This document shows positions 14,836-45,339 of a DNA stretch of 64,000 bases, piece after piece (within the stretch, counting starts at the first letter, position 1; each line of letters begins with the position of its first letter). The stretch covers positions 11,033 to 75,032 of the forward strand of contig VMFZ01000001.1 of assembly GCA_007376285.1 (NCBI GenBank), given 5' to 3'. The notes under the pieces are model-generated. The model saw only the letters and a list, made by a program, of their open reading frames with translations. It made no database searches and was not told where the DNA came from. The position numbers were made by a program, and so were the translations under genes. The DNA comes from Parcubacteria group bacterium Gr01-1014_17. Lineage in GTDB: Bacteria > Patescibacteriota > Minisyncoccia > Phycocordibacterales > UBA10002.

Positions 14836-14902
14836 AAAAATTAAAAAACAGATTTTTAATAACCCTATAGTACCCCAAGAACAAATAAAATAACAGGCAC
14901 GA

Positions 14903-18860: not shown

Positions 18861-18898
18861 CTATTCCAACTACTTGCTATAGCAGATAAATGGAAGAG
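18861..18898. repeat. 38-bp imperfect palindrome CTATTCCAACTACTTGCTATAGCAG.TAA.TGGAA.AG, copy 1
   Basis: centre TTGCTATAGCAA is a perfect palindrome; copies at 19510-19549 and 37213-37250. Confidence 0.7.
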
Positions 18899-18901
18899 GT
18901 G

Positions 18902-19483: not shown

Positions 19484-19509
19484 TTCTTTTATCTTATTTT
19501 ATTTTGATA

Positions 19510-19549
19510 CCTCTCCCAACTACTTGCTATAGCAAGTAACTGGAATAGG
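19510..19549. repeat. 38-40-bp imperfect palindrome, copy 2, 27 bp upstream of the PaaX-like start
   Basis: CCAACTACTTGCTATAGCAAGTAACTGG. Confidence 0.7.
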
Positions 19550-19571
19550 TCACCATTACACCAATAAGTTG

Positions 19572-20825: not shown

Positions 20826-20846
20826 TTTTTACAGTATAACCTGTTT

Positions 20847-20917
20847 TGGACCATGGGAGAATCGGACTCCCGTCCCCCGGATGCAAACCGGGTGCACTAC
20901 CACTATGCTAATGGCCC
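20847..20917 (-). tRNA. tRNA-Ala (anticodon UGC)
   Basis: cloverleaf GGGCCAT..TTTGCAT anticodon loop..ATGGTCC with G3:U70 identity pair; T-loop reads TCCGATT (C at position 55); no encoded CCA. Confidence 0.7.
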
Positions 20918-28340: not shown

Positions 28341-28433
28341 AAAAGAATAGAGGGATTAGAGAATAAGCAGTAGTATAACAAAAAATGGGTACGCGGGCTA
28401 CAACCATTGTGCATAAACCAAAACACACCTCAT

Positions 28434-28471
28434 TTGCCAAACATTCGGCTTCTTTCTACAATAGAGCAATG
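28434..28471 (+). promoter_or_regulatory. promoter TTGCCA-N17-TACAAT ending 6 nt before the LOG ATG (leaderless-type start)
   Basis: hexamers read in the sequence. Confidence 0.4.
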
Positions 28472-29161
28472 ACAAACAATATAAATGAAAATGGACATTC
28501 CGTTTCGCCTCTTACAAAAGAAGACGCACAGCAAATTATTGACGCGCGAATTGAACATATAAATGCGGAATTTAAAGTCGCGTTTGAGTTGATTAAAAAT
28601 TATCCGCGTTCTGTATCCATATTCGGTTCTGCGCGAGTGGAAGAAGAGAATCCGCACTATGAACGGGCGCGGGCGCTTGCGGCGCGCATTGTGAAAGACC
28701 TCGGCTACGCGGTTATTACTGGAGGAGGCGGAGGTATTATGGAAGCAGCCAACCGTGGTGCGCGCGAGGTTGGCGGACAGTCAGTCGGGTTAAATATCCG
28801 GCTTCCGAAAGAACAGCAGAAAAACGACTATACGACCGACAGTATGGAATTTTCGTATTTTTTCGTGCGCAAAGTCGCGCTTTCGTTTGCCGCCGAAGCG
28901 TACATCTTTTTTCCAGGTGGTTTTGGAACCTTAGATGAGTTTTTCGAAATTCTGACACTCATACAAACGCACAAAATCAGACGCGTACCTATTATCCTTG
29001 TAGGCCGCGATTATTGGGAAGAACTGAACGATTTTCTTTTTAGAAATGCATACCGCACTGAACACGCGATTAGCAAAGAAGATATGGACCTCTACAAAAT
29101 CACCGACGACGATAACGAAATCATTGAAATAATCAAAAAAGTACCGATTAAACAAGGGTGA
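28469..29161 (+). CDS. LOG-family (TIGR00730) cytokinin riboside 5'-monophosphate phosphoribohydrolase-like protein
   Basis: SVSIFGSAR, GGGGGIMEAANRGA and PGGFGTLDE motifs; start at Met29 of the ORF. Confidence 0.85.
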   Translation: MTNNINENGHSVSPLTKEDAQQIIDARIEHINAEFKVAFELIKNYPRSVSIFGSARVEEENPHYERARALAARIVKDLGYAVITGGGGGIMEAANRGAREVGGQSVGLNIRLPKEQQKNDYTTDSMEFSYFFVRKVALSFAAEAYIFFPGGFGTLDEFFEILTLIQTHKIRRVPIILVGRDYWEELNDFLFRNAYRTEHAISKEDMDLYKITDDDNEIIEIIKKVPIKQG

Positions 29162-29164
29162 TAT

Positions 29165-30064
29165 TCAAAACTCCAGCGTCCGCAATACCTCTGCGTCCAC
29201 GACGGACCATTCTGCTTCGCGTATCGCTCCGTAAAAACGGACGATATCGCCCGCCACAAAGCGCTGGAGCGTCGTCTTTGCTTTATCCTTCCGCAGTATA
29301 AGCGTTTTCTCAGGAAGATATACCGTAAATTCTTTTCCATTCACCACTACTGCCGCAACAGTCGGGAGCGTAACGCTATCAAGCCGAGTGAGCTTTCCCT
29401 CAAAATTGCGTGACGAAAACTTTTGCTTATCTTGAAAGATTTTTACAGAGTCCGCAGAAAGGGAGCGGTCCAAATGGTTATACACACCAGTGGTTTCAAG
29501 AACGCGGTCGCCGAGCGCAATCGCAGAAGGTGGAATGGCTACGATTCCGCGAATGACGGTTGAGGTCGCTTTCGGTTTTATAAAGACCGTGCTCCCGTCT
29601 CCAATTTGTAAAATAAACGCGCCGCTTTGGTCGGGCGCAGACGCTACGGTTCCAGCAAACGAAGAACCTTCGGTGGATACCGACCAATTTTTTATGGATT
29701 TTGCGTCTACGCCAAGAGAATCAGAACTCCCGTTAAAAACCCCTTCAACACTGATAAAATGCCCGAGTGCAAATTGAGCAAGTACGATGGGGTTTCCAAA
29801 CCGATGCTTAAGCGATGTTTTAGCATCCGTGCGAATAATCCAGCGCACAGGAAGCATTCCCCAATGTTGAGAAGCAAAAATAGTTGAACCAGTAATTTGG
29901 GTGATGCGCGCGCCTTCCACAATCGTATCTCCGTTTTCTTCAATAGTGAGAGCAAGCGGCGCACCGACTGTTTTAGGTGATGGAATCTCCGGCGCAAGTG
30001 CATAGGCGCTGTATCCTACACAGAAAATAATCGCCAAAGCAAAAAGAAAACCGGCTATTTTCAT
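29165..30064 (-). CDS. secreted or lipoprotein-like hypothetical protein with repeated beta-rich modules
   Basis: signal peptide MKIAGFLFALAIIFCVGYSAYA; no recognised catalytic motif. Confidence 0.5.
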   Translation of the reverse strand: MKIAGFLFALAIIFCVGYSAYALAPEIPSPKTVGAPLALTIEENGDTIVEGARITQITGSTIFASQHWGMLPVRWIIRTDAKTSLKHRFGNPIVLAQFALGHFISVEGVFNGSSDSLGVDAKSIKNWSVSTEGSSFAGTVASAPDQSGAFILQIGDGSTVFIKPKATSTVIRGIVAIPPSAIALGDRVLETTGVYNHLDRSLSADSVKIFQDKQKFSSRNFEGKLTRLDSVTLPTVAAVVVNGKEFTVYLPEKTLILRKDKAKTTLQRFVAGDIVRFYGAIREAEWSVVDAEVLRTLEF

Positions 30065-30129
30065 ACAGAAAGGTATAGCACAGTGTAGAAAAAACACCAG
30101 AGGCGGGATACCACTCTGGTGTTAGTTGT

Positions 30130-30552
30130 TTATTGACGCGCCGACAAGAATTTTTCTGTCTTCAGTCGTAGCGAATTCATAAACACAGAAATTTCCGCAA
30201 TTTCTCTCGCGGAAATCTTTGGAGAATATTCTGGATTCTGTCCGTTGCGCCGAAGAATTGAAATATCACTATTCACGAGCGTGAACGAGAAACCTCCCTC
30301 GTTCCGCACACGAGGAATAAATTCAATTTCTTCAACAACAATTTTCTTACCGGCTTTTCCTTTCTCCCTATCGTACGATAATGTTCCTAAAGCATTCTCT
30401 ATAATCACGCCGAAACTTCCATCATTGGACAATGTGGAACATACCCCCTCGCGCATGTTCCCATCAAGGAACCTCAAAAGGTCTTTGAAAAACGGCTCCG
30501 GCTTAAAAAATGAAAAATGCTCCTGCAACCACAGCGCAATGCGACTATTCAT
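30130..30552 (-). CDS. hypothetical protein
   Basis: 140-aa ORF with correct spacing; no recognisable domain. Confidence 0.4.
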   Translation of the reverse strand: MNSRIALWLQEHFSFFKPEPFFKDLLRFLDGNMREGVCSTLSNDGSFGVIIENALGTLSYDREKGKAGKKIVVEEIEFIPRVRNEGGFSFTLVNSDISILRRNGQNPEYSPKISAREIAEISVFMNSLRLKTEKFLSARQ

Positions 30553-30628
30553 CTTTTTGTCCTTTCTTTATCAAACGAACAAACTGTTTTCCGCCACCTA
30601 TACTACGCCTGTTTTATAGAAAAATCAA

Positions 30629-30699
30629 CTGGGGGACTTGGAATCGAACCAAGATACTGGGCTTCAAAGGCCCATGTCCTACCGTTAGACGATCCCCCA
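30629..30699 (-). tRNA. tRNA-Gln (anticodon UUG)
   Basis: UGGGGGAUCG...anticodon loop CUUUGAA...UUCGAUU T-loop, U1:A72 and G73 as in bacterial tRNA-Gln; close match to E. coli tRNA-Gln. Confidence 0.85.
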
Positions 30700-30713
30700 A
30701 TACATCCAAAATA

Positions 30714-31766
30714 TCATTTATTTTGAGTATCGCAAAGTTTGATGATTGCCAATTCAATGGGAAGGTGTGGAAGGTGCGAGCGGCCGATGAGGTCATAGTA
30801 TTCAAGAAAAGTAAGAAGTGTCTGCGAAGTAAGCCCGCTTGCGGGAATCTTTTTCAGAAACGCAAAGTCGGCTTCGGAAAGTTCGCGCGAGATTTCTTTT
30901 TCCATATCCGGCGCGATGCGCAAGAGAAGCGCGAAGCGCATTTTTTGCAAAATAAGCTTCGCAAACACTTTCATATCGGTATGCGCCTCCGTCGCTTCTA
31001 CGACTGCCGACAACCCATCCTCCGCATTACGTTCAACAAGCGCCGCAATCACGCGGTTCGCAAGCTCACCTTTGGGCGCGCCGGTCACGCGAAGCACTTC
31101 TTCTTCTGAAATCTTTTTATCAGCAGAAATGGAAATTACTTTCTGCAAAATGCCGTACGCATCGCGGAACGAGCCGTCTCCCAAAAGCGCAATGAGTTCT
31201 GCTGACGCATGGCTCATCTCGTACCCTTCTCTCTTTCCGGCGCGGGCGATAATTTCGGCAAGCGTCTTCTGGCTCGGCTTCCGAAACGAGTGTAGCTCAC
31301 AGCGGGAAATAATGGTTTCCGGCACTTTATCAAGCTCGGTTGTTGCAAGAATAAAAACAACATGCGCGGGCGGCTCTTCCAATGTCTTGAGAAGCGCGTT
31401 AAACGCTTCTTTGGTAAGCATGTGCACTTCATCAAGAATGTAGACCTTGTAAGGCGATTCAAACGGAAGCGAGAGCACCGTCTCACGAAGCTCGCGCGCG
31501 TCTTCAATCTTGCGGCTGGACGCCGCGTCAATTTCTTGCAAATCAATATCGGCAGTTTTAAGAGAATGTGCGAGAATTCTTGCGACTGATGTTTTCCCAG
31601 TCCCGCGCGCGCCGGCAAACAGGTACGCGTGCGAAACTCTACCAAGCGCCAAAGCGCCAGTGAGCGCTTCCACTACATGCTCTTGCCCTACCACTTCGTT
31701 CCACTTTTGCGGACGGTATTTCCGATACAGCGCGGAAAATGATTCTTGCTTTTCTTTTGAATTCAT
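30714..31766 (-). CDS. dnaX: DNA polymerase III subunit gamma/tau
   Basis: YRKYRPQKWNEVVGQEHVV..GARGTGKTS Walker A, SRC motif; start at Met45 (ATGAATTCAAAAGAA). Confidence 0.9.
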   Translation of the reverse strand: MNSKEKQESFSALYRKYRPQKWNEVVGQEHVVEALTGALALGRVSHAYLFAGARGTGKTSVARILAHSLKTADIDLQEIDAASSRKIEDARELRETVLSLPFESPYKVYILDEVHMLTKEAFNALLKTLEEPPAHVVFILATTELDKVPETIISRCELHSFRKPSQKTLAEIIARAGKREGYEMSHASAELIALLGDGSFRDAYGILQKVISISADKKISEEEVLRVTGAPKGELANRVIAALVERNAEDGLSAVVEATEAHTDMKVFAKLILQKMRFALLLRIAPDMEKEISRELSEADFAFLKKIPASGLTSQTLLTFLEYYDLIGRSHLPHLPIELAIIKLCDTQNK

Positions 31767-31788
31767 ACAGAAAGAATAACACAGAAAA

Positions 31789-31856
31789 GACACCCGATGT
31801 CTGCCCGCCCGTACCGAATGGTACATTCGGGCGGGCAATTTAGACATCGGGTGTCG
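31789..31856. repeat. 68-bp palindrome ACACCCGATGTCTGCCCGCCCGTACCGAATGGTACATTCGGGCGGGCA..AGACATCGGGTGT in the dnaX upstream region
   Basis: nested inverted repeats read in the sequence. Confidence 0.7.
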
Positions 31857-31945
31857 GATTACCCCAAAACTTGACAGTGTATTTTTTGCATGTATCATCT
31901 GTAGTAGAACAGTAAAATAATATAGAAACGATGCGAAGGAGTATC

Positions 31946-32383
31946 ATGAGTAATCCGTTTGAGAAAATAAAAGAGAAAAACGCACAGTTTCCGCAAATTC
32001 GCAAACAAGCAGAAGCTCGTTATGACGAACTTGTAATGAGTGTGCTCCGCGAACTCCGAAATGCACTTTATCCTCATAGCCCCACAGTATCTAGTCCAGT
32101 AAGTGGGCTTTTGGGAGTTGGAGGGGATGTGGAGGTTTTTTCTGGATGGCACATTTGTGGATATTTTCCCCAACATCCTGACCCGAGCAAGCCGTGGGAG
32201 AACCCTCCCCGCGGTGTCAATACAGGCGTGTCTGTCTCTTTGATTTTTGACTCAAATAATTGCCCAACCAGCTTTTTGTGTACTATTTCGCAAGACTGGT
32301 TCTATGAACCATCAAAAAGTGGGCGGACGCGCGGTCTAACGCGCCACGAGTTGACTGAAGTTCTTGCACGAATGCATTCCTAG
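31946..32383 (+). CDS. hypothetical protein (145 aa)
   Basis: AGGAG Shine-Dalgarno 8 nt upstream of the ATG; Rho-independent terminator follows. Confidence 0.5.
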   Translation: MSNPFEKIKEKNAQFPQIRKQAEARYDELVMSVLRELRNALYPHSPTVSSPVSGLLGVGGDVEVFSGWHICGYFPQHPDPSKPWENPPRGVNTGVSVSLIFDSNNCPTSFLCTISQDWFYEPSKSGRTRGLTRHELTEVLARMHS

Positions 32384-32401
32384 CTGTGTCATTTAAATCT
32401 T

Positions 32402-32440
32402 CCCGCGACTTGAAATATAGTCGCGGGTTTTCTTTTTTTC
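32402..32440 (+). terminator. Rho-independent terminator CCCGCGACTTGAAATATAGTCGCGGG + TTTTCTTTTTTT
   Basis: perfect 8-bp stem plus T-run. Confidence 0.7.
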
Positions 32441-32830
32441 CGCTTTTATACAAACATTTTGCCCTCCTCATCGGCGGGCAAGCAAAATGACTGGATACAC
32501 TATCTTTGGCGGTCGCAAAGTTTAGTGTATATAGAAAGTTCTACCATACTACAAAGTATGAGAGAAGAAATTAGAGCGAACGAAACTCGTTGAGGCGCGC
32601 AGGTTTGCAAACATGGGTAAGGCACGAAGCGAAATGCTTTTTCAAAATGTCTGGAGCGAGTGGTCGCATTGCAGCGACCCGAGCGTTACCGAGGACTTTT
32701 GTAAAAAGCATTTTGCGGAGTGTCTTCCTTTCAATGCGCGCCGAGAAAGAGTTCTAAGAGACACCAGATGTTTGCCATCTATCCCGCCTCATCGGCGGGT
32801 CGCCGAGGAGGAGACAACATCTGGTGTCAA
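32440..32830. repeat. mosaic repeat island A with four modules: ATTTTGCC..GGCAAAAT hairpin (32456-32488), ACACTATCTTTGGCG..AGTGT (32497-32528), AGAGCGAACGAAACTCGTTGAGGCGCGCAGGTTTG (32573-32607), family-H palindrome (32761-32828)
   Basis: modules shared in the same order and orientation with island B (37100-37530) and partly with 59604-59660. Confidence 0.7.
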
Positions 32831-35316
32831 CTATGCAACTCCTCGGGCGAGAGTTCTACGCGCGAGCCGGGGCGGATTTCGCCGCGCAGGATCTTATCAG
32901 CAATCGCGCGCTCTACGCTGTCGTTTATAGCGCGTTGCATCGCGCGCGCGCCGAATTGCGGGTCGGCACCAGCTTCCGCCACAAAATCAACTAACCGTTG
33001 GGTCGGCACAAACATCACGCCGCGCTCGCTCAAGCGCTTCGCAAGTTTCTGGAGCATAAGAACTGCGACCGCGCGCAAGTTCTTGCCCGTAAGCGGTTGG
33101 AACAAAACCACTCCGTCAAAACGGTTCAGAAGCTCCGGCGTAAAGGACCCGCGTTCCACGAGCGCGTCAGTAATACGCTTCTTTTCGTCCGACAAATCAT
33201 TCCCTTGCCGCACCGCGTTCCAGATAAGGTCGCTCCCTGCGTTTGAAGTCGCGATAATTAAAAGATTCCGGCAATTCACGCGCTTGCCAGCAGCGTCCGT
33301 GAAAAACCCTTCGTCAAGCACCTGCAAAAACAAATGCCGGATTTCCACGGTCGTTTTCTCAAACTCATCCAGAAGCAAAACGCCGTAGGGTTTTTCGCGT
33401 AGAAGCGAAGCAAGCACACCCGGCTTCCCCGCCGTAAACGAACCAATGAGCCGTTCGAGCGCATCCGCGGTCTGGTATTCCGATAAATCAAGCCGATGCG
33501 TCGCATCTTCGCTTCCGAAAAATGAGGATGCGAGCGCTTTTGCGGTTTCTGTTTTGCCGACACCAGTCGGGCCCAAAAAGAGGAACGAGCCAAACGGGCG
33601 ATTCGGGTTCGCAATCCCAGAACGCGCGCGGCGCAAAGCCGCCGCGACAGTTGCAAGCGCCTCGTCTTGCCCAACCACGCGCGCGCGAAGCGCGCTTTCA
33701 AGCGTAAGGAGCGTCGCGCGTTCGGATTCCTTAAGCGCCCCGACTGGTACTCCCGTTCGCTTTTCAACCACCGACAAAACATCTGAAGGGAGTACCGCAA
33801 TCCGTTTCGCCTTTTTCACGGCGCTCGCGGCTTCGTACAATACATCAACTGCTTTATCCAAAAGCGATTCGCCCATAAAATATCGCGCGCTTGCTTTCAC
33901 CGCCGCTTCAACTGCCGGAAAGGTGAAAAACAATTTGCTTCCCGCCTCAATCCGCACCGCTTCGTCTTCAAGGTACGGCAACACTGCGCGTTCGTCTGGC
34001 GCCGGTACCAAAATCCGCTCAAAGCGCTTCATCAGTTCCGCATTTGGTTCAATGGTGCGATGAAAAGCGCCGGTCTCCGCAAGCGCAATGAGCTGAATGC
34101 GCGTGGATGCGAGAAACTCGTCCAAAAGGCGCCCAGCATCGCTCCCAAGTGTCGCTGCGCTTTCTAAAAACGCCGGAAAATCCGGAAGCACGACAATCAA
34201 ATTACCCGCCGATTCAATTTCTTTAAACAAACGGAGTAGCTCGCTTTCAAACGCAATTTTTGTCTTTGTTTCTGCGATAAAAGAATTTGTGTCAAAAAGT
34301 ATAAGCCGTTTATGCTCTAATTGCGGAAGCACGGAGCCATCCCGAATGCGTGAGAGAACAAACGCAATGGCAGCTTCGCGCGGAGAACCAGCATCACCCA
34401 CCAAAAGCGCGTTCGCCTCGCGTACGCGAGAAAGCACCGCTTCCGCTTGTTCTCCGGCGCCCGCCGCAAGGAGCGCTTCTGCGGAAGACACGCGCGCAAA
34501 CGCAGGGATTTGCGCAATATCCTTGCCGTAACGCGACAATCGCCACGCCGAGCCGTACGCCCAGTCCTTGCCGATGCCTTGAATCCTCCCCAGCCGTTCG
34601 CGACCCAATGCGCGTGCCCCGCGGCGCATATTTACCAAGCAGCGCTCCACCCACCCAGCTGCTTCGGCTGCGACTCCTGCAGATACGCTCTGTTCAGCAA
34701 GAAAAAGCGCAGCATCTTGGTCAACAGAAAAAATTGCCATTACGATGTCAGAAAGAGAAATGGGCGCGCCGTTCCGCGCTGAAACAGAAAGCGAATCCGA
34801 TGTAAGAGAGTGCCGCGGTTTATTTACAAACGCGCGCACTGCCGCACTGGAAATGCCGAGCCGCAAGAAAATCTGCTTGCCTAAAAAACTCTTGGAAAAG
34901 CTTCTGAATATATCCGCACCGGAAATCTCCGACACTGAAACAGCCGCGTCAAAAGAAATAAGAAGCGGTTCTCTTTTCCAAAACGGTTCGCGGAGCAAGA
35001 GCGGAAACCCGCGGCACGCGGAAGAGTAGTAGCAGGCATTCACAGAAAACAACGCAAGATACAGCGCAAGCGCAATATAAAATAAACCAGGAACGAACTG
35101 GAGCAGTGCGAGAAGTCCTGAGGAAACAGAAAGACGCTCCGCAAACGAGGGGCTCGCGGTGAAGATTGAAAATAGAAGTGCACCGCACAGAAAGATAACA
35201 ACAAGAAAGCCAAGTGAGCGCGCAAGCCGCAACCGTTTCGGCAAGGGCAGAAACCGTTCAATCAAAACCCCCAACTTAAAAACTGAAGTAGATTGTTGTA
35301 GTTCTTGAAATGTCAT
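32827..35316 (-). CDS. membrane-anchored ClpA/ClpB-family AAA+ ATPase with degenerate D1 and intact D2
   Basis: N-terminal about 100 aa with 2 TM helices; D1 keeps only its C-terminal half (no Walker A); D2 has Walker A GPTGVGKT, Walker B LLLDEFEK and a sensor-2 region. Family-H palindromes flank both ends of the gene. Confidence 0.7.
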   Translation of the reverse strand: MTFQELQQSTSVFKLGVLIERFLPLPKRLRLARSLGFLVVIFLCGALLFSIFTASPSFAERLSVSSGLLALLQFVPGLFYIALALYLALFSVNACYYSSACRGFPLLLREPFWKREPLLISFDAAVSVSEISGADIFRSFSKSFLGKQIFLRLGISSAAVRAFVNKPRHSLTSDSLSVSARNGAPISLSDIVMAIFSVDQDAALFLAEQSVSAGVAAEAAGWVERCLVNMRRGARALGRERLGRIQGIGKDWAYGSAWRLSRYGKDIAQIPAFARVSSAEALLAAGAGEQAEAVLSRVREANALLVGDAGSPREAAIAFVLSRIRDGSVLPQLEHKRLILFDTNSFIAETKTKIAFESELLRLFKEIESAGNLIVVLPDFPAFLESAATLGSDAGRLLDEFLASTRIQLIALAETGAFHRTIEPNAELMKRFERILVPAPDERAVLPYLEDEAVRIEAGSKLFFTFPAVEAAVKASARYFMGESLLDKAVDVLYEAASAVKKAKRIAVLPSDVLSVVEKRTGVPVGALKESERATLLTLESALRARVVGQDEALATVAAALRRARSGIANPNRPFGSFLFLGPTGVGKTETAKALASSFFGSEDATHRLDLSEYQTADALERLIGSFTAGKPGVLASLLREKPYGVLLLDEFEKTTVEIRHLFLQVLDEGFFTDAAGKRVNCRNLLIIATSNAGSDLIWNAVRQGNDLSDEKKRITDALVERGSFTPELLNRFDGVVLFQPLTGKNLRAVAVLMLQKLAKRLSERGVMFVPTQRLVDFVAEAGADPQFGARAMQRAINDSVERAIADKILRGEIRPGSRVELSPEELHS

Positions 35317-35327
35317 ATTTATTCTCT

Positions 35328-35396
35328 GGCGCCCGATGTTTGCCGCCTATCCCGCCTCATCGGCGGGTCGCCGAGGAGGAGACAACATCGGGTGCC
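35328..35396. repeat. family-H palindrome immediately upstream of the ClpA/B-like start codon
   Basis: GGCGCCCGATGTTTGCCGCCTATCCCGCCTCATCGGCGGGTCGCCGAGGAGGAGACAACATCGGGTGCC. Confidence 0.7.
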
Positions 35397-35398
35397 TC

Positions 35399-35764
35399 TT
35401 ACAATGCACGGACACCAATAATAATCAGAAACACAATCACGAACGGCAACACGAGCCACAGAAGAAGCACGACAAGCGCGGCTAGAAACGCCGCCGCAAA
35501 TGCGAACGCGGCGAGTGCGAATAGCGCGAGCCGCGCAACAATACCGATGGCGCGCATCGCAGCACCGACAATCATGCGCCCGACAAACGACCCTTGCGCT
35601 TCACCGAGCCGCTTCCACGGCACGAAAAATGAGCGCGCGAGAAGCTCTATGGAAAAGAAATGCCAGAGAAACCAAAAGAGATTTGAAACCGCGCGCGCTA
35701 AATCAACTAGCGCCGCGCTGTAGTGCCACAAAATGTACTGCGGCAAAAAAACAACAAAGTTCAT
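35399..35764 (-). CDS. hypothetical polytopic membrane protein
   Basis: hydrophobic 120-aa product; start set at Met33. Confidence 0.4.
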   Translation of the reverse strand: MNFVVFLPQYILWHYSAALVDLARAVSNLFWFLWHFFSIELLARSFFVPWKRLGEAQGSFVGRMIVGAAMRAIGIVARLALFALAAFAFAAAFLAALVVLLLWLVLPFVIVFLIIIGVRAL

Positions 35765-35786
35765 ACCAGAATTATACCACGCGGCG

Positions 35787-36608
35787 CTACCGGCGCTTAA
35801 ATACAACTTGGTCCTTAAAACGAACATCAAAATACTGGAGCGCTGGTGAGACGGAACCACCAGAGATTTTCAGATTCGCGGCAGCGAGTGTTGCCGGCAG
35901 TTCCAAAAAGAGCTCAGGTGTTTTCTGCGAGAGCACAAAGCGCGCTTCGGCGCTGTCTGCAAGCAAGAGCGCAAAATCATTCCCTTCTGCTCGCACCACT
36001 TTTTTAATTGCCAAACCAACTCTTTCTGCAGAGGAAATAATATTGCGAAGCAGAGCAAACTTCTCGAGCGGTAGGTAGCGCGCACCAGAGTCCGCGCCCC
36101 AACCCTCAAACACAAGACGAGACAGCGGCGGCGCATCGCCTTTTGCCTGCGCAAAACCGAAGCCGCTTTCGTCAATAAAAACGCACTCGCCGGCAGAGGG
36201 GCACCACTCCGCAAATGGCTTCCGTTCCGACACGGCGATAATTACCAGAGCACCGCCCCGCATCGCATCAACTGATGCGATGCGGGGCGAAGTTGATGCG
36301 ACCGCGCCTACAAGCACCGTTCGCGGATAAAGTAATTGGTGAGTAAAAGAAAACAAGCGCACACCGACATCAGTAAACGCGCGCGCAACCGCAGCTTCCG
36401 CGCGAAGTTCCTCCACGCGCGCGGAACTGTTTATGCCGACAATAGTAACTTTTCCAATTTGAAACGGCGTGTAAAACGAAAACAACGACAGACCGAAAAA
36501 GAGTAGCGCGAGCGCGGACATACCGAAAAACGCTCGCCACGCAAATCGTCGCATCTTGCTTGGACGGCGTTTGCGTCGTAACCCCTGCAATTCTGCTCGA
36601 TACGGCAT
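35787..36608 (-). CDS. FtsQ/DivIB-like cell-division protein (TM plus POTRA-like domain)
   Basis: single TM followed by IGKVTIVGINSSARVEELRA POTRA-like segment; start at Met49 (ATGCCGTATCGA). Confidence 0.5.
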   Translation of the reverse strand: MPYRAELQGLRRKRRPSKMRRFAWRAFFGMSALALLFFGLSLFSFYTPFQIGKVTIVGINSSARVEELRAEAAVARAFTDVGVRLFSFTHQLLYPRTVLVGAVASTSPRIASVDAMRGGALVIIAVSERKPFAEWCPSAGECVFIDESGFGFAQAKGDAPPLSRLVFEGWGADSGARYLPLEKFALLRNIISSAERVGLAIKKVVRAEGNDFALLLADSAEARFVLSQKTPELFLELPATLAAANLKISGGSVSPALQYFDVRFKDQVVFKRR

Positions 36609-36703
36609 AGAGATAGTATAATATAAAAATAGGAATACTAACGGACTATGGACATATTTATTATTTCGTGTATTATGATTTCTGGATATAAAGAAAGAAT
36701 TAC

Positions 36704-37045
36704 ATGAAAATACAAAGACCTCCGCGGAAAGAGTTTGTTGAGTATCTTGCATCAGAAAATCCTCAAGACATGGGTATTATCTCTCATGTTGGACTCACGC
36801 GTGAAAAAGCCTGTGAAATTTGTGAGTTGCTTTTACGCGAGGGCGAGTGGATGATTGAAGTCGGGCAACGCAGAGAAAAGTTTCTAGCATGGTTGCTAGA
36901 CAAGAAAACCAATGAAATCGTCTGGGTTACTCCACCGATTTTTGACTCGCGTAATCAAGCGAAAAATTATTTGGAAGAATATACCAGTTGGATACAAAAA
37001 GTATACCTTACAAATTGGGTCGCATCTGGTTGTCCCCGTCCTTGA
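36704..37045 (+). CDS. hypothetical protein (113 aa)
   Basis: ORF followed by terminator AAGCCGTTCGCAAGAACGGCTTTTTCTTTT (37058-37090). Confidence 0.45.
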   Translation: MKIQRPPRKEFVEYLASENPQDMGIISHVGLTREKACEICELLLREGEWMIEVGQRREKFLAWLLDKKTNEIVWVTPPIFDSRNQAKNYLEEYTSWIQKVYLTNWVASGCPRP

Positions 37046-37099
37046 GCACTCTTTACCAAGCCGTTCGCAAGAACGGCTTTTTCTTTTGTCTATTCTCTT

Positions 37100-37530
37100 A
37101 TTCTCACGAATTAGTCCATACAAGTATTTTGCCCGCCTCATCGGCGGACAGGCAAAATACTGAAATACACTATCTTTGGCGACCTCTAGAGATAGTATGG
37201 GTATTCGCCTGACTATTCCAACTACTTGCTATAGCAGTTAATTGGAATAGTGAATAGTAATAGTGATAAAAATCACGGAGGCACCAGATGTCTAAATTGC
37301 AGACATCTGGTGCCGAAAAAAGAGCGAGCAAACTCGTTGAGGCGCGCAGGTTTGAGACGCCCTTGCGCAATCTGAAAACACGAAAGCGAGGAAGTACCTA
37401 TGCCGAGACGGCGAGGAGGCGAACGGCCATGGACTCCCGAGCGAAGCGAGGGAGGAGTGAGCCGAGCGGATAAGGCAAAATTCCTCGGAGGGGAATTTTG
37501 CCGGTCTCGGCAGAGGTAGCTTCCGAGCGC
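37100..37530. repeat. mosaic repeat island B: ATTTTGCC hairpin (37126-37158), ACACTATCT element (37167-37197), PaaX-type palindrome copy 3 (37213-37250), GGCACCAGATGTCT hairpin (37280-37314), AGAGCGAGCAAACTCGTTGAGGCGCGCAGGTTTG (37321-37354), GGCAAAATTCCTCGGAGGGGAATTTTGCC hairpin (37474-37502)
   Basis: direct-repeat partner of island A. Confidence 0.7.
37288..37473 (+). CDS. putative 61-aa highly basic small protein (weak resemblance to the ribosomal protein S21 C-terminal half)
   Basis: GGAGG 8 nt upstream of an ATG that lies inside the hairpin arm; K/R-rich; a decayed fragment of the same ORF occurs in island A. Confidence 0.3.
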   Translation: MSKLQTSGAEKRASKLVEARRFETPLRNLKTRKRGSTYAETARRRTAMDSRAKRGRSEPSG

Positions 37531-38701
37531 TATTTTATTTCCCCCTTCCCCAAATACGGCACCAGCACGGGTGGAACGACGATACTTCCGTCTGCGCGCT
37601 GGTTGTTTTCCAACAAAGAAATCAGAAGGCGTGGCGTAGGCGCGGCGGTGCAATTCAGTGAATGCGCGAACTTTTGTTTTCCGTCCTTTTCTTTGTAACG
37701 AATGTTAAGTCGCCGCGTTTGAAAATCGTGGAAGTATGAGGCAGAACTTATTTCCCGATATCGCTTTTCTGATGGCACCCACAGGTTAATATCATATTTT
37801 TTCACTTGTCCGAGCCCGAGGTCTCCGCCGCAATTAGTAACCGTCTGGTACGGAATACCGAGCGCTTCCATAAACTCCTCTTCGTTGCGATTCATTTCTT
37901 CATGAAAGCGCACTGAGGTCTGGTGGCTCGCTTCGCAAAGCACTACTTGTTCACATTTAAAGAATTCATGCACGCGCATCAAGCCCTTCGTATCTTTGCC
38001 GTGGCTCCCCGCCTCACGCCGGAAACAAGGCGAGAACGCGATGAGCTTTTTTGGGAGTTCTTCCGCAGAAAACATGCTGTCCGCGAAATACGACATCACC
38101 GGCACTTCGGCAGTGCCTGCAAGATAATCGCCGTCCTGTGTTTTATACAAATCGTCTTCGCCCTGCGGAAGGTAACCGGTGCCGAGAAGCGCTTCGCGCC
38201 GAACGAGAGAAGGCGCCAGCATTGGCGAAAAACCTTTCTTCACAAAGAAATCAAAACAAAACTTCCAAAGCGCGAATGATAAAAGCGCGCCATCGTTTTT
38301 CAGAAAGTACCCGCGGAAACCAGATACCGCCGCGCCGCGCTCAAAATTCGCCATATCGTTTTTCAAAAGCAAATCAATATGGCTTTTCGGTTCAAAAGCA
38401 AACGCTGGCTTCTCGCCCCAACTTCGCACTTCGGCATTGTCCGCATCGCTTCCTCCTTCCGGTACGGAAATATCGGGCACATTCGGCACTTGGAGCATCA
38501 GTGTCTGCCATTGTTGCGTCGCTTTTTTCAGACGCCGCTTTTGCGATTCTGCTCCGCGCGCTTGTTTTCAACAACCGTGAGAAGTGCGCGGCGCTCGTCG
38601 TCTACGGCAATAAGTTCTTCCACTTTGAAATCGACGCACTTCTTCCGCGCCGCCTCGGCAACAAGTTCTTTGTTTTCTCGGATGAATTTTATATCCAACA
38701 T
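37530..38701 (-). pseudogene. serS: serine--tRNA ligase gene interrupted by a +1/-1 frameshift at an A6 tract (N-terminal 57 codons 38528-38701; catalytic part 37530-38498)
   Basis: N-fragment MLDIKFIRENKELV...AEQNRKSGV* matches the SerRS N-terminus, and the 322-aa ORF is the class II catalytic core starting near VPNVPD. Frames differ by 1 nt around GTCTGAAAAAAGCG. Confidence 0.8.
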
Positions 38702-38727
38702 ATTATGAATAATGATACCATAAAGAA

Positions 38728-39591
38728 GTGTCGTCCATTACCGTAATAAAACCGCCACAATTCCCGCGTCGATTGCGCGAAATACCAGACCCGCCGGAGA
38801 AACTCTGGGTGGAGGGGCCGCTTCCACCCGAAGAATATAAATGGCTCGCCGTGGTCGGCTCGCGCCGCTATTCGCAATACGGTCGCGAAGCGTGCGAGAA
38901 ACTAATTGCTGGATTGTACGGCCACCCCGTCGTTATCGTGTCGGGCCTTGCGCTCGGGATTGACTGCATTGCGCACCGCGCCGCGCTTGAAGCAAAATTA
39001 AAATGCGTCGCGGTGCCAGGCTCCGGCATCAGCCGAAAGGTCTTGCATCCGTCGGCAAACCGACCGCTGGCGGAAAAAATACTTGAGGACGGTGGCGCGC
39101 TCCTCTCGGAATTTCCTCCAGAGTTCCGCGCGACGCTCTATAGTTTCCCACAACGAAATCGCGTGATGGCAGGGCTCTCGGATGCCGTGCTTGTCATAGA
39201 AGCCGAGAAGAAATCCGGCACGCTCATCACCGCGCGGCTTGCCTCCGAATACAACCGCGATGTGCTCACCGTACCTGGCTCCATTTTCTCCGGCGCGACG
39301 GAAGGCCCTCACCTTTTGATGCGCCTCGGCGCAACACCAGTCAGAAATGCCGATGAACTTCTCGTGGCGCTTGGGTTTAAGGCGATATCCGACTCGGAAC
39401 GAAAAAATCGCAATTATTCTGATTGTTCGCCGGAAGAAATAAAAATCCTAGAACTTTTGACTGTTCCAATGGAGCGCGACGCGCTCATTGCCGCGGCGAA
39501 ACTTCCTGTAAGCAAAACCAACGCCGTCCTCTCGCTCCTTGAAATCAAGGGTTTTATTTCCGAGGGTATGGGCGAGATTCATTTAATCTGA
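38728..39591 (+). CDS. dprA: DNA processing protein DprA/Smf
   Basis: Rossmann-like core LAVVGSRRYSQYG..VIVSGLALGIDCIAHRAAL; GTG start only 26 bp from the divergent serS start. Confidence 0.85.
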   Translation: MSSITVIKPPQFPRRLREIPDPPEKLWVEGPLPPEEYKWLAVVGSRRYSQYGREACEKLIAGLYGHPVVIVSGLALGIDCIAHRAALEAKLKCVAVPGSGISRKVLHPSANRPLAEKILEDGGALLSEFPPEFRATLYSFPQRNRVMAGLSDAVLVIEAEKKSGTLITARLASEYNRDVLTVPGSIFSGATEGPHLLMRLGATPVRNADELLVALGFKAISDSERKNRNYSDCSPEEIKILELLTVPMERDALIAAAKLPVSKTNAVLSLLEIKGFISEGMGEIHLI

Positions 39592-39972
39592 TTTTTCTTT
39601 GTCTTTTCCGTTCTTGAAATCAAGCATCTGTTTTAAGAAAACCGACACCGAGCCGTTTCGAGGCGCGGTTGGCTCTTTGCCGCGGAGAAGCCGCGCCGCC
39701 TGCCGCATCTCTCGAATGCACCACTCAAAACCCCCCGTAATCGCCTCGCGCGCCGCCTCCCCCGCTTTCTTTATTGCCGGCTTTATATGAATGTGGTGCA
39801 CCTCCTTGCTCTTGCGCGCGAGCGTTTTCTTGCCACGCGAAAGGAGCTCGTCGCCGCGGCTTGAGAACGACGCGAGCGGCGTCTCCCTCCCGCCCATTTC
39901 AGAAAGCTTCAGCGCAAACAGCGCCACAAGCCCAACGATTGAAATAATGAAAATTGTAAGTGCGTGGAACAT
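39583..39972 (-). CDS. hypothetical membrane protein
   Basis: single TM; start set at Met29 to avoid overlap with tsf. Confidence 0.35.
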   Translation of the reverse strand: MFHALTIFIISIVGLVALFALKLSEMGGRETPLASFSSRGDELLSRGKKTLARKSKEVHHIHIKPAIKKAGEAAREAITGGFEWCIREMRQAARLLRGKEPTAPRNGSVSVFLKQMLDFKNGKDKEKSD

Positions 39973-39988
39973 AAGTAAGTAAAACGCC

Positions 39989-40438
39989 CTACGCCGCGAA
40001 GCGCGTGAAGTCGGCGACTTCAATGCGCTCGCCGAATTTTTGTATTGCTTTTTCAATCAGACCGCGCACCGTTTCATCCGGCGTTTTGATAAACGGTTGG
40101 TCTAACAGCGCACCCTTTTCCGGATTCATTGCCGCCACATGCATCGCAATGTCGCGCGCGAGCGCTTGGAACTCGGGGTTACGCGACACGAAGTCGGTCT
40201 CGGAAGAAAGCAAAACCAAAGCGCCTACCGTTGCGCCAGGGTGGATGTAGGACGCGACCGCGCCTGCCCCGAGCGCGCGTCCTGACTTTTTCGCCGCCGC
40301 CTCCGCACCGCGCTTTTTCAAAATGAGCAACGCTTTTTCGGCATCCCCGCCCGCCTCGGTGAGCGCCTTGCGGCACTGCATTACCGATACACCCGTCTTA
40401 TCGCGCAACGCTTTGATTTGGTCAGTAGTAATTTCCAT
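39989..40438 (-). CDS. tsf: elongation factor Ts, short form (149 aa)
   Basis: N-terminal UBA-like ITTDQIKALRDKTGVSVMQCRKALTEAGGDAEKAL; downstream of rpsB. Confidence 0.85.
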   Translation of the reverse strand: MEITTDQIKALRDKTGVSVMQCRKALTEAGGDAEKALLILKKRGAEAAAKKSGRALGAGAVASYIHPGATVGALVLLSSETDFVSRNPEFQALARDIAMHVAAMNPEKGALLDQPFIKTPDETVRGLIEKAIQKFGERIEVADFTRFAA

Positions 40439-40439
40439 A

Positions 40440-41156
40440 TTAAACCTTCGCTGTCGTTATTTTCCCTTCATTATACGCCTTCACAATTTCATTCACAAAA
40501 TGCCGGATGCTCCCCATAGACGAATCATTCGCGATAATCGGATGCGCAATATCGGAAATATCGCAATCCGAACTCGCGAGCGCGACCACCGGAATTTTAA
40601 GCCGCTTCGCTTCGCTCGCGGCGGTCTTCTCTTCTTTCGGGTCAACGATAAAAAGCGCGGCGGGAAGCGCTTTCATACCCACCAACCCGCCAAATAATTC
40701 TTCCAGCTTTTCAATGTCGCGGCTAATCAAGAGCTGTTCTTTCTTTGTATATTTCGCCAAATCGCCCTGTTCACGCTTTGCCTTAAGGTCAAGAAGCATA
40801 TCCACGCGCGAGCGGATTTGCGCGAAGTTGGTCAGCGTGCCGCCGATCCAGCGCCCAGACACATTGGGCATACCTATTTCCATCGCGCCCTGCCGCACCG
40901 CGTCCGCGGCTTCGTGCTTGCCGCCGACAAAGAGGATTATTTTGCCTTCCGCACCGAGTGTTTTTACAAACACTTTCGCCGCTTCCAAGAGTTCCTTGGT
41001 TTGTTCCAAATTGATAATTTCTACGCGGTTTTTCAAGCCCAAAATATAGGACGCGGTGGAGGGGTGGCGGCGCGTCTTTGCGTAGCCGTAATGCGCTCCA
41101 ACCTTAAACAGCGCGTCAATAACTGGGTCGCTCGCTGGTTCCTTTGTCTCTGTCAT
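40440..41156 (-). CDS. rpsB: 30S ribosomal protein S2
   Basis: LFKVGAHYGYAKTRRHP..VEIINLEQT bS2 N-terminal signature; start at Met28. Confidence 0.92.
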   Translation of the reverse strand: MTETKEPASDPVIDALFKVGAHYGYAKTRRHPSTASYILGLKNRVEIINLEQTKELLEAAKVFVKTLGAEGKIILFVGGKHEAADAVRQGAMEIGMPNVSGRWIGGTLTNFAQIRSRVDMLLDLKAKREQGDLAKYTKKEQLLISRDIEKLEELFGGLVGMKALPAALFIVDPKEEKTAASEAKRLKIPVVALASSDCDISDIAHPIIANDSSMGSIRHFVNEIVKAYNEGKITTAKV

Positions 41157-41178
41157 AAAATAAAGTGTAACAAGTTTT

Positions 41179-42144
41179 TTACGAGGAAGCAACCGCTTCT
41201 TTTTCCGCCTGTTCCAACGCTTCAACAATCTCCTCAAGGCCGCCGGCTAAAATGGCGGGAATATTGTGCCATGATTCCTTGATACGGTGGTCGGTAATGC
41301 GATCTTGCAGAATGTTGTAGGTGCGGATTTTCTCGCTCCGGTCGCCGGTGCCGATTTGCGCGCGCCGCGTATCGGCGCTTTTCTTCGCCGCCGCCTCAAT
41401 GGAAAGAACTTCAAGTTTTGCGGAGAGAATCTGGAGCGCTTTCTCGCGATTACGGCTCTGGCTGCGCTCCGCGGTAGAGCGCACCACGAGGCCTGTCGGC
41501 TTATGGAAAATTCGCACTGCGGTCTCTACTTTGTTTACATTCTGCCCGCCCTTCCCGCCGGCGCGCGAAAACTCCACTTCAAGGTCGGCAGGGTTCACCT
41601 CAAAGCGCGTCCCCGAGCGGATGGGCATAATCGCGACGGAAGCGGTTGAAGTATGCACGCGACCCATCTTTTCCGTCTCGGGCACGCGTTGGATGCGGTG
41701 CACGCCGGTTTCAAACCGCAGAAGTTTGTAACAACCCTTCCCTTTAATTTCAAACGACGCTTCTTTGTACCCGCCGATGCCGTTTTCGGAAATATCAACT
41801 GCCGACCACGACCATCCGCGATGCTCCGCAAACGCGTGGTACATATCGGAAATCTCGCGCGCAAAAAGCGCTGCTTCATCGCCACCAACCCCTGCGCGCA
41901 CTTCCAAAATAAGTTCGTTCGGAAACGCCTCTTCCTCTTTCGCCGCTTCCGCAACACCATGCATCTGTGCTAAGAGCGCCGCTTTTTGTTCAACAAACGA
42001 TGCGAGTTCTTTGTCAGCCATTTCTTTCATTGCAGAGTCGCGCTCCGTGAGCGCGCGTAATTCCGTTTCCTCTTTTTCAATTCGCTCAAACGACTGCGCA
42101 AGATGCGCTGTCCGCGGATTTTTTTTGTACACGCTCAAATCCAT
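41179..42144 (-). CDS. prfA: peptide chain release factor 1
   Basis: GGQ motif ([14 protein letters not shown]) and PET tripeptide ([14 protein letters not shown]) of the RF1 type. Confidence 0.85.
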
Positions 42145-42416
42145 TTACTTTTTCCGCCTCCTCGGCGGGTCGCCTTTGAGGCGATTTTGCGCGGCTTTGC
42201 GGCGGTTTTCGCCATTTTTGTCTTAAAGCGCTCCACGCGGCCCGCCGTGTCTACAATCTTTTCGGCACCCGTATAGAATGGGTGGCAGTTGCCGCAAATT
42301 TCAACTTGTAATTCCGGCTGTGTTGAGCCCACAGCAAAAACCGCGCCGCAGGCGCACGAAACCTTCGCTGACGGATAGTATTTTGGGTGGATTTCTTTTT
42401 TCACGAATAAAATCAT
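42135..42416 (-). CDS. rpmE: 50S ribosomal protein L31 with a repeat-encoded C-terminal extension
   Basis: [24 protein letters not shown] zinc-ribbon bL31 core. The last about 25 aa include palindrome 42154-42183 translated in frame; the stop overlaps the prfA start. Confidence 0.85.
42154..42183. repeat. palindrome CCGCCTCCTCGGCGGGTCGCCTTTGAGGCG inside the rpmE 3' coding region (encodes ..[11 protein letters not shown]..)
   Basis: same CGCCTCATCGGCGGGTCGCCGA..GGCG core as copies at 46663, 50324 and 56879. Confidence 0.7.
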
Positions 42417-42497
42417 AGCAGAAACGCCCAAAAACAGCAAACCAAGCAAAAAGAAAAGGTTTGCCGTCTTGCGACAGCAAACCTTTTGTGAGCCAAC

Positions 42498-43130
42498 CTA
42501 GTTGGCGGCGATGTACTCCATAATTTCGTCCTTTTTCTCCTGCGGAATCTTCTTCTCGCGAACGAAAAAGTCCAGCATTTCGCCAAGCCGCGCTACTGCG
42601 CAAACCTTTCGACCTGTGCGGTTGAGTTCCTCAAGCCCACCCTGCTCGCGGTCGTACAACACTAGTGTGCCTACTACCTCAAGCCCATTTTCCTCAACCG
42701 ACTGAATTGCCTCCCGTTTGGTGTCCGCCTTGGTAATCAAGTCATCAACCAACACAACTTTCTTTCCTTTTTCAAACTGGTCCAGAATGTTGGAGGTGAT
42801 TTTGCGCCCGTCTTGCCCTTCAATCTTCTCGATCCGAAGTAGTGGTTTATTGACGGCTTTTGCAAACGCGCGTCCGATCGGCTCGCCGGCTTTCGGAATC
42901 CCGATGACATAGTCAAAATCGGGAATATTTTCCAGAACAACCAAGTCGTGGAGTATGTCACCAGCAAGGGTATATACCCACTCCGGCAACTCCCGAATAT
43001 TGAGGTATATCGGCGACAAGGGAGCGTCAGGATTTTTCTCGTGAAGTTTCAGCTTGAATGCCCCAAACTTGATTTTTCTAAGATCAAATAAACTCGCGTG
43101 GAAATGTTCTATTTTGTTTTTTGTTTTCAT
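42498..43130 (-). CDS. type I phosphoribosyltransferase, orotate PRTase-like
   Basis: LRKIKFGAFKLKLHEK..PIYLN N-terminus and VVLVDDLITKADTKREAI PRPP-binding loop; 210 aa from Met204 of the ORF, the upstream 203 codons are antisense to polX. Confidence 0.7.
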   Translation of the reverse strand: MKTKNKIEHFHASLFDLRKIKFGAFKLKLHEKNPDAPLSPIYLNIRELPEWVYTLAGDILHDLVVLENIPDFDYVIGIPKAGEPIGRAFAKAVNKPLLRIEKIEGQDGRKITSNILDQFEKGKKVVLVDDLITKADTKREAIQSVEENGLEVVGTLVLYDREQGGLEELNRTGRKVCAVARLGEMLDFFVREKKIPQEKKDEIMEYIAAN

Positions 43131-43226
43131 TATCAATCTCCATTTTCTATATCTATGAAGGATACTACTGTCGCATAAGAAAAAAGCAAGTTTTCCAATC
43201 GCCAAACCCATGCGATACTGTTTAAT

Positions 43227-44897
43227 ATGAAATCCCTTTCCAACGCGCGGATTGCGGAACTGCTTGGTGAAACGGCGGCGCTGTATGAAATAGAAAACGA
43301 GCCGTTTAAGCCGCGCGCCTACGAGCGCGCGGCGCTTGCGATTGAAGCGCGCGAGGAGCCGCTCTACGAAACAATGGCGCGCGGCGGACCTAAAGCGCTT
43401 CAAGAAATCCCCGGCATCGGGGCAGGCATTGCGGCACACCTTGCGGAGCTCCTCGCGCGCGGCACCTTTGCGGAATACGAACGGCTCAAAAAAAAGACGC
43501 CAGTTGCCGTTGGCGAACTTGTTGCCGTGGAAGGCATCGGACCGAAAACCGTTAAAACGCTTTGGGAGAAATTGAAAATAAAAAATCTGGACGAACTGGA
43601 GGCAGCGGCGCGCGGAGGCAAGCTCCGCGCGCTCGCGGGCTTCGGGGAAAAAAGCGAGGAAAAAATCCTCAAAGGTATTGCGTTCCGGCGCACCGTTGGC
43701 GGGAGAATGATTTTGGGCGCAGTGCTTCCAGTGGCGCATGCGTTAGAAAATAAACTTCGCGCATTCCAAGAAGTAAAAAACGCGATTGTCGCGGGCTCCA
43801 TCCGCAGGATGAAAGAAACCGTGGGTGATATTGACTTACTCGTCGTATCAGAAAAACCAGAAGAGACAATGAAAAAAATTGCGGGGCTTCCCGAAATAGA
43901 GCATGTCAATGTGCACATCGTCCAGCCAGAGTCGTGGGGCGCAGCGCTTAATTATTTTACTGGTTCAAAAGCGCATAACATCGCACTTCGCGAGATTGCG
44001 ATTAAAAAAGGGTGGGAATTAAATGAGTATGGATTACTTAAAACAGAAAAAGAACTTTATGAAAAACTTGGGCTTAAATACATTGAACCGGAATTACGCG
44101 AAATGACTGGGGAAATTGAGGCAAGTAAGAATGGGAAACTCCCACATCTTGTCGGTTACAACGACTTAAAAGGCGACCTACAGGCGCACTCAACTTGGAC
44201 TGACGGCACGCGTTCTATTGAAGAAATGGCGCGTGCCGCGGCAGAGCTTGGCTTGGAATACATTGCAATGACCGACCACACGCAAGGGCTTGCGATGACC
44301 GGCGGAATGAACGAAAAAGAATTTGCGGAACAAGCGAAGGAAATTGACGCGCTTAATGATAGATTCAAGAAACAAGAAACACGATTCAAGATACTAAAGA
44401 GCGCGGAAGTTAATATAAAAAAAGACGGCTCGCTTGACCTTGCGGACGAAGCGCTCGCGCAAATGGACTTTGCCGGCGCGTCCGTGCACAGCCACTTTGA
44501 ACTTTCGGTTAAAGAACAGACGAAACGGCTTATTAAGGCGATTGAACATCCGCTTATTGACATCATCTTCCACCCAACAGCGCGCCTCTTAAACAAGCGG
44601 CCTGGAATTTCTGCGGATTGGAGCGAGGTGATTGCCGCGGCAAAAGAAAACGTCACCGCGCTTGAGATTGACGCAGCGCCGGAGCGCCTTGACCTGCACG
44701 ACGAGCTCATACGGCAGTGCGTAAACGCGGGAGTGATGCTCTCTATTGGATCTGACGCTCACTCGCCCGATGGGTTTAGGGCGCTCAAACTCGGCATTGC
44801 GCAAGCCCGCCGCGGCTGGGCGGAAAAGAAAAATATCGTGAATGTGCTACCGGTAGAGAAGATGCTTAAAATGCTAAAGAGGAATCGAGAAAAATAA
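43227..44897 (+). CDS. DNA polymerase X family protein (Pol beta-like core plus C-terminal PHP phosphoesterase domain)
   Basis: helix-hairpin-helix IPGIGAGIA, nucleotidyltransferase GDIDLLV, PHP motifs HTQGLAMTGG / HSHF. Confidence 0.88.
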   Translation: MKSLSNARIAELLGETAALYEIENEPFKPRAYERAALAIEAREEPLYETMARGGPKALQEIPGIGAGIAAHLAELLARGTFAEYERLKKKTPVAVGELVAVEGIGPKTVKTLWEKLKIKNLDELEAAARGGKLRALAGFGEKSEEKILKGIAFRRTVGGRMILGAVLPVAHALENKLRAFQEVKNAIVAGSIRRMKETVGDIDLLVVSEKPEETMKKIAGLPEIEHVNVHIVQPESWGAALNYFTGSKAHNIALREIAIKKGWELNEYGLLKTEKELYEKLGLKYIEPELREMTGEIEASKNGKLPHLVGYNDLKGDLQAHSTWTDGTRSIEEMARAAAELGLEYIAMTDHTQGLAMTGGMNEKEFAEQAKEIDALNDRFKKQETRFKILKSAEVNIKKDGSLDLADEALAQMDFAGASVHSHFELSVKEQTKRLIKAIEHPLIDIIFHPTARLLNKRPGISADWSEVIAAAKENVTALEIDAAPERLDLHDELIRQCVNAGVMLSIGSDAHSPDGFRALKLGIAQARRGWAEKKNIVNVLPVEKMLKMLKRNREK

Positions 44898-44899
44898 AT

Positions 44900-44950
44900 C
44901 ACCCCCTCACCCTACCCTCTCCCCCTTATGAAAAGGGCGAGAGGGGTTTT
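44900..44950 (+). terminator. GC-rich hairpin CCCTCTCCCCCTTATGAAAAGGGCGAGAGGGG + TTTTTCTTTTTTT; a second hairpin CCCT..AGGG follows (bidirectional)
   Basis: stem plus T-run after the polX stop. Confidence 0.65.
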
Positions 44951-45000
44951 TCTTTTTTTACCCTGCCCTTAACCTAAGGGGAGGGAAAGGAAGGGGTGTA

Positions 45001-45339
45001 TTATACGGCAACCCGCCGCACATTGAACAAGCGCGAGACGCGCGTTAAGTCGCGCACGGCAAACACGGAGAGAACTGCGAGCGCGAGTGAGAGCGCTTGA
45101 ACAGTGAGTTCGGTATTAAGAAACGCTGAGAGCACAAATTTGCCGAATGCCGCAAACTCTGCCGGAGACGGCATATTGCCGAACACATTTTGCACCGACA
45201 CAAACGCAGTCGCGACAAGCGCGAGCGCCGCGACCGAGCCCATTTTCAAAAGAAACGGCTTCACCACTTTACGCAAAAAGAAGACCACATACACGCGCCG
45301 CATCACATCGCGCCTTACTGATTGAATATATTCAGCCAT
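45001..45339 (-). CDS. putative anti-sigma factor-like membrane protein
   Basis: 112 aa with 2 TM helices; 2 nt downstream of the ECF sigma gene in the same operon. Confidence 0.35.
   Translation of the reverse strand: MAEYIQSVRRDVMRRVYVVFFLRKVVKPFLLKMGSVAALALVATAFVSVQNVFGNMPSPAEFAAFGKFVLSAFLNTELTVQALSLALAVLSVFAVRDLTRVSRLFNVRRVAV

Follow-up and report, generated by a model that had tools for sequence, protein, structure and literature searches.

A seryl-tRNA synthetase gene with 91 missing bases in a Parcubacteria metagenome-assembled genome, most likely an ordinary serS interrupted during assembly

Introduction

Bacterial-type seryl-tRNA synthetases (SerRS, class IIa), among them the solved enzymes of Aquifex aeolicus (2dq3) and Thermus thermophilus (1ser), carry a two-helix N-terminal arm and a class II catalytic core. 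A catalytic SerRS lacking the coiled-coil arm is found in protostome mitochondria, where the SerRS2-alpha/SLIMP system associates an arm-less catalytic SerRS with an arm-bearing inactive paralogue (PMC10817482). The two form a conserved in-frame pair in which the paralogue supplies the arm.

For a gene that continues in another frame, two other systems are of relevance. The first is dnaX-type -1 frameshifting, with a slippery heptamer (X XXY YYZ) before the 0-frame stop and a two-frame arrangement conserved in related genomes. The second is the group of mis-assembly and scaffold-join errors of the assembler idba_ud. Going by titles and term counts, other groups routinely fix 'scaffolding errors' in idba_ud assemblies with ra2.py; since ra2.py, idba and 'scaffolding errors' are named together in several studies, such errors are evidently a recognised problem.

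Here we describe serS of Parcubacteria group bacterium Gr01-1014_17 in a 64-kb window, the whole stretch of DNA analysed. Outside one lesion the window DNA is 100% identical to an intact allele having the same two-helix N-terminal arm and class II core as the bacterial-type enzymes. In contrast, the window copy is without residues 56-86 and out of frame, so that it encodes a stub of 57 aa and, separately, a core of 322 aa without the arm. A catalytic SerRS without the coiled-coil arm is also what SerRS2-alpha/SLIMP has, but in the window there is no paralogue and no conservation, and the arm remnant is frameshifted.

Results

serS as it stands in the window

As presented in the window, serS comprises the following parts, all on the minus strand:

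38528..38701, minus strand: N-terminal serS fragment, 57 codons, from ATG 38701 to TGA 38530-38528 (ORF list)
37530..38534, minus strand: remainder of serS in the -1 frame, equal to codons 87-420 of the intact protein (RLKKATQQWQTLMLQVPN...GEIK and stop)
37530..38498, minus strand: deposited CDS, 322 aa, with the internal ATG 38498 corresponding to Met99 of the intact protein

The earlier note on this DNA, made from the letters, had taken the first 57 codons for the SerRS N-terminus, and the match of this ATG-initiated ORF with Pfam Seryl_tRNA_N (PF02403; profile positions 1-56 of 108, E=1e-12) bears this out. The protein reads MLDIKFIRENKELVAEAARKKCVDFKVEELIAVDDERRALLTVVENKRAEQNRKSGV; authentic SerRS is limited to codons 1-55 of the stub (MLDIKF...NRKS); after them come G and V, both read out of frame, and the premature TGA. 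The catalytic core was likewise correctly placed in an offset frame. In a three-frame translation, the -1 frame is open from 38570 to the stop at 37530, reading ...RLKKATQQWQTLMLQVPNVPDISVPEGG..., and it contains the complete class II core (tRNA-synt_2b, PF00587, E=6.5e-32).

The closest database protein (P0001) is encoded by an ENA contig, ERZ27284378:k139_288377 (L001), and the comparison with this contig covers window 27530-45242. Stub DNA down to 38536 is 100% identical to the contig. Residues 82-420 of the contig protein match the -1 frame remainder at 98.5% (tblastn), with the DNA again 100% identical. The 322-aa CDS is deposited at NCBI as TSC85181.1, 'seryl-tRNA synthetase [Parcubacteria group bacterium Gr01-1014_17]' (100% identity; contig of 85,230 nt), and this core is 100% identical to the matching part of the 420-aa intact allele. 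Joined, the two frames would encode ~389 aa, whereas the intact protein has 420 aa: the arm is thus ~30 aa short, as the note had estimated, with ~30 arm codons absent.

The window copy has a class II core with SerRS-specific sequence; a complete Seryl_tRNA_N in frame with the core is present in the ENA allele and absent from the window. The locus was also rightly described as the sole SerRS signature of the window, since tblastn with the intact SerRS matched this locus alone and revealed no second serS within the 64 kb. The 322-aa core, the 57-aa stub and a 61-aa downstream ORF had no exact match among recorded products, and tRNA and Rfam scans detected nothing near serS. From established knowledge of the enzyme, serS as written should be non-functional for charging.

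A single 91-nt block is missing from the arm

The difference between window and ENA contig within the gene comes down to one position:

38535..38536, minus strand: deletion junction, where 91 nt of the ENA contig (5945-6035) are absent (pairwise alignment A1, blastn)

The absent 91 nt, AGCAGATTACGCG...GGAGGAGGAGGA, begin at the second base of codon 56 and end at the second base of codon 86 in the intact allele. On one side of the junction, contig 6036-17041 aligns with window 38535-27530 over 11,006 nt without a mismatch (blastn). On the other side, contig 2039-5944 corresponds to window 42440-38536 (blastn), and the first difference occurs only at 40956, 2.4 kb away. Over window 27530-40955 (13.4 kb), the 91-nt block is therefore the sole difference from the contig, without a single SNP.

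Since 91 = 3x30+1, the frameshift and the ~30-aa-short arm, presented in the earlier note as two separate features, reduce to one lesion. Loss of the 91 nt removes residues 56-86 and at the same time shifts the frame, giving the 57-codon stub ending in TGA and the core in the -1 frame. The lesion has to lie upstream of this TGA, within the ~42 nt open in both frames. By this comparison of sequences, the split of serS is caused by 91 missing bases in the middle of the arm and not by a slip in the A6 run.

A repeat scan found no microhomology at the junction 38536|38535. We rejected slipped-strand deletion between direct repeats: the only flanking repeat, AAAAGCGA, is spaced 107 nt and predicts another product. 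A move of the block elsewhere in the window was also discarded, the block being absent from the rest of the window. A modest hairpin is located inside the 91-nt block (z=-2.15); the breakpoints do not fall at its arms.

The intact allele and its relatives carry full arms

The intact allele is a canonical SerRS of 420 aa, which aligned end to end with the solved SerRS structures 2dq3 (E=8.6e-98) and 1ser (E=5.2e-92). Full-length proteins among the top 120 matches measure about 406-443 aa. A GTDB genome scan returned relatives and not the source MAG: in 77 related genome loci the SerRS query was matched through the arm in a single frame, bar contig ends and one scaffold gap. The closest relatives, at 76-90% identity to the intact allele (alignment A2), all have full arms, and in a DNA alignment the 91-nt block is conserved coding sequence in seven relatives.

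Hence the shortened arm and the split have no parallel among the relatives compared (seven aligned, 77 loci, top 120 proteins), where no split or short-armed serS was encountered. Nor was an in-frame short arm shared across the clade. Judged on these sequences, the short arm is not a trait of the lineage.

The scaffold gap concerns the locus on CAYORD010000066.1 (L077). About 330 nt into its own serS, this scaffold shows a 10-N gap followed by ~30 nt of unrelated sequence, and the frame is broken. This is unambiguously a scaffolding artefact, in the same gene of another assembly.

The deletion is lopsided with respect to the arm tip

AlphaFold modelling of the intact allele (mean pLDDT 88.6, pTM 0.86) gave arm helices at residues 27-60 and 64-99, on either side of the tip (61-63). 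Deletion of residues 56-86 takes 5 residues of helix 1, the turn and 23 residues of helix 2; after an in-frame fusion, 29 residues of helix 1 would face 13 of helix 2. The loss being lopsided around the tip, no tidy mini-arm or shorter hairpin would be left.

Strain mixture and neighbouring genes

A segment of ~770 nt (window 42450-43235) is absent from the ENA contig compared above. It carries a gene on the minus strand (42498-43130) encoding a 210-aa phosphoribosyltransferase domain protein (PF00156, E=5.7e-11). A second contig of the same ENA assembly (L084, 1,253 nt) is 100% identical to window 42285-43537. The presence of the window haplotype on this separate contig is a sign that the ENA sample contains two closely related strains, and hence that the assembly graph branched here.

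Identity to the first ENA contig is a mosaic: it amounts to 100% over 27530-40955, is interrupted by two SNPs (40956/40959) and by SNP clusters at 42404-42437 and 43238-43436, and falls to 87% at window 45024-45242. This looks like strain recombination or a mixed-strain consensus. A PolX-like gene (contig 355-2202 versus window 43227-44897) is called as 615 aa in ENA. Counted from a conserved ATG it is 556 aa in contig and window alike, so that the longer call looks like an over-extended start and no real difference.

On the other side of serS, a 14-nt perfect inverted repeat (GGCACCAGATGTCT ... AGACATCTGGTGCC, window 37280-37314) lies between serS and a convergent 113-aa gene without Pfam match; it is probably a bidirectional terminator. 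A Logan contig (L080) ends at 37241, beside this repeat.

Two further synthetase genes around serS are undamaged, a class IIb synthetase at 12888-14372 and a class II aminoacyl-tRNA synthetase at 19572-20825 (minus strand; 417 aa, PF00587 and HGTP anticodon domain), both intact. The latter, with its HGTP anticodon domain, is not a SerRS.

Origin of the missing block

Because a near-identical public contig carries the intact gene, the break in serS is most likely either an assembly error or a defective allele. Of the two, we favour, as moderately likely, a local fault of assembly or a wrong scaffold join as the origin of the missing block. Two contigs would then have been butted together without Ns during idba_ud assembly or scaffolding of a mixed-strain sample; alternatively, a local mis-assembly would have been left in without Ns. 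A branched assembly graph joined by a scaffolder would be a setting where a short block can be lost, and the organism itself would have the intact 420-aa gene, as in the near-identical contig.

This reading finds support in the junction, which shows no microhomology while the only flanking repeat predicts a different deletion, and in the fact that the sole change in 13.4 kb inactivates a normally essential, single-copy gene. No other broken genes were evident in a greedy ORF map of the 64-kb window. The resemblance to idba_ud errors of the type addressed by ra2.py consists in a precise block missing from an otherwise perfect match, again with no microhomology, and in a pipeline that, by the genome's name, used default scaffolding without curation.

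As to the source, the designation Gr01-1014 agrees with a sample of Danczak et al. from Greene County, October 2014 (0.1-um filter), a link by name only. That study sequenced on the Illumina HiSeq 2500 and built its contigs and scaffolds with idba_ud at default settings; no curation of scaffolding errors is described. The probable source reads are those of BioProject PRJNA512237 (PMC6730927). An uncurated idba_ud scaffold made from Illumina reads therefore fits the window, through the name Gr01-1014 alone.

Against an artefact, the window is free of the Ns expected at a scaffold gap and of other visible marks of a join, which distinguishes it from typical idba_ud errors. Where a gap is estimated at zero or below, idba_ud may link contigs without inserting Ns. 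De Bruijn assemblers, though, normally seldom invent a junction that has neither read support nor a scaffolder join behind it. Moreover, the strain differences between the two assemblies include a gene-sized indel, and a real allelic deletion is possible.

Such a deletion is the one rival to which we assign real, if minor, weight. The 91-bp loss would be a very recent allele of the population, i.e. a pseudogenisation, which the assembler followed; its carrier would be a subpopulation, or one chromosome copy of a multi-copy cell. Recent pseudogenisation had been proposed in the earlier note, and the idea survives as a 91-bp deletion, not as the 1-nt slip then envisaged. Consistent with it, the junction is clean, made of unique sequence and free of Ns, and closely related strains with structural differences do co-exist. 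As the 13.4 kb of flanks contain no SNPs, the deletion allele would have to be extremely young. This has to be set against an essential enzyme with no second copy in the window, a lesion that shifts the frame and, in addition, takes out the arm tip asymmetrically, a junction devoid of the microhomology that spontaneous bacterial deletions usually leave, and an independent assembly in which the gene is intact.

The per-run Logan contigs of SRR8863434 reproduce the window at 100% identity in three stretches (12264-18318, 18289-20873 and 35360-37241), and none on record crosses serS; the one carrying the 113-aa gene stops at window 37241. The absence of any recorded Logan contig over 37241-39600 would fit a branch or a coverage break, as a real allele might produce. 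The DprA and EF-Ts neighbours were matched on the ENA contig alone. When the N-terminal 163 aa or the C-terminal 218 aa served as query, the protein collection yielded no partial SerRS at 100% identity from another assembly, the NCBI entry excepted. In the JGI metagenomes, neither a 31-mer from the left flank nor a 32-mer from the right flank had a match, the species not being in that collection.

Every reading beyond an artefact and a real young deletion is, by our estimate, highly improbable. Among them is a split gene that functions, either through the arm-less core (ATG 38498) alone, through this core aided by the 57-aa peptide or a different tRNA-binding partner, or through a -1 recoding fusion. 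It can draw on a core ORF that has its own ATG and retains the whole class II catalytic domain, and on the precedent of SerRS2-alpha/SLIMP in protostome mitochondria (PMC10817482). We nevertheless hold it to be very improbable: no slippery heptamer is found where both frames are open and A AAA AAG comes after the TGA, no relative has a split or short-armed gene, a fusion would keep 29 against 13 helix residues and form no shorter hairpin, and the window contains no SerRS paralogue. Equally hard to credit is a deletion that is real and fixed, in a cell living on the arm-less core from ATG 38498 with tRNA-Ser recognised in trans; this recognition may then come from the host, from a paralogue encoded outside the window or from the 57-aa peptide.

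The A6 run does not account for the split

The earlier note had located the frameshift at an A6 homopolymer. This run and the stop codon next to it are as follows:

38523..38528, minus strand: A6 run, unchanged in the intact allele and in the CAYORD010000066.1 locus, where it reads CTG AAA AAA GCG (LKKA) in frame
38528..38530, minus strand: premature TGA, which in the intact reading is the TG of the Leu88 codon plus the first A of the Lys89 codon (CTG AAA)

The run is A6 in both alleles and the alignment puts the lesion at 38536|38535, so that the frameshift cannot be assigned to the homopolymer. The first A of the run is also the third base of the TGA, the 0 frame reading GTC TGA AAA AAG. Since the run lies at or after the TGA, a change of its length cannot repair the gene; an added A still leaves GTC TGA. 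Illumina HiSeq rarely miscounts a run of six A. With equal run lengths in window and intact allele, at or after the stop, there is no length correction that would restore the frame, and the homopolymer sequencing error suggested in the note was abandoned.

Programmed slippage, its third suggestion, fares no better. With dnaX-type frameshifting the locus shares the presence of A AAA AAG and a downstream frame of -1. However, the window heptamer stands after the 0-frame TGA, whereas a slippery heptamer before the 0-frame stop is expected; three-frame translation revealed no X XXY YYZ heptamer in the stretch open in both frames (about 38570-38528). Furthermore, relatives read plain Lys-Lys within one ORF, the two-frame arrangement is not conserved in the 77 related loci, and 30 codons are physically absent in the window. 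UGA as a sense codon (code 25) was rejected as well, given another TGA ten codons on in the 0 frame and a window that reads well under code 11.

Thus the A6 run does adjoin the frame change, but a one-base miscall (A6 versus A7) or programmed slippage on it has a practically negligible probability, the run being A6 in the intact allele too, the TGA preceding and overlapping it so that no change of length restores a frame, and the true difference being the 91-nt block.

Discussion

If the deletion were real and fixed, it would challenge the indispensability of the SerRS arm; nothing here supports this. Similarly, were the arm-less core to be taken as true, it would be a bacterial counterpart of SerRS2-alpha/SLIMP.

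The locus is most likely the ordinary bacterial-type serS of a Parcubacteria (CPR) MAG with a 91-bp hole made by assembly. A frameshift that sits beside a homopolymer can thus be a larger deletion located elsewhere. For data quality, the consequence lies in the deposited entry: TSC85181.1 (322 aa) could be counted as a missing or partial marker gene, and readers might take it for a CPR enzyme whose arm is reduced or absent.
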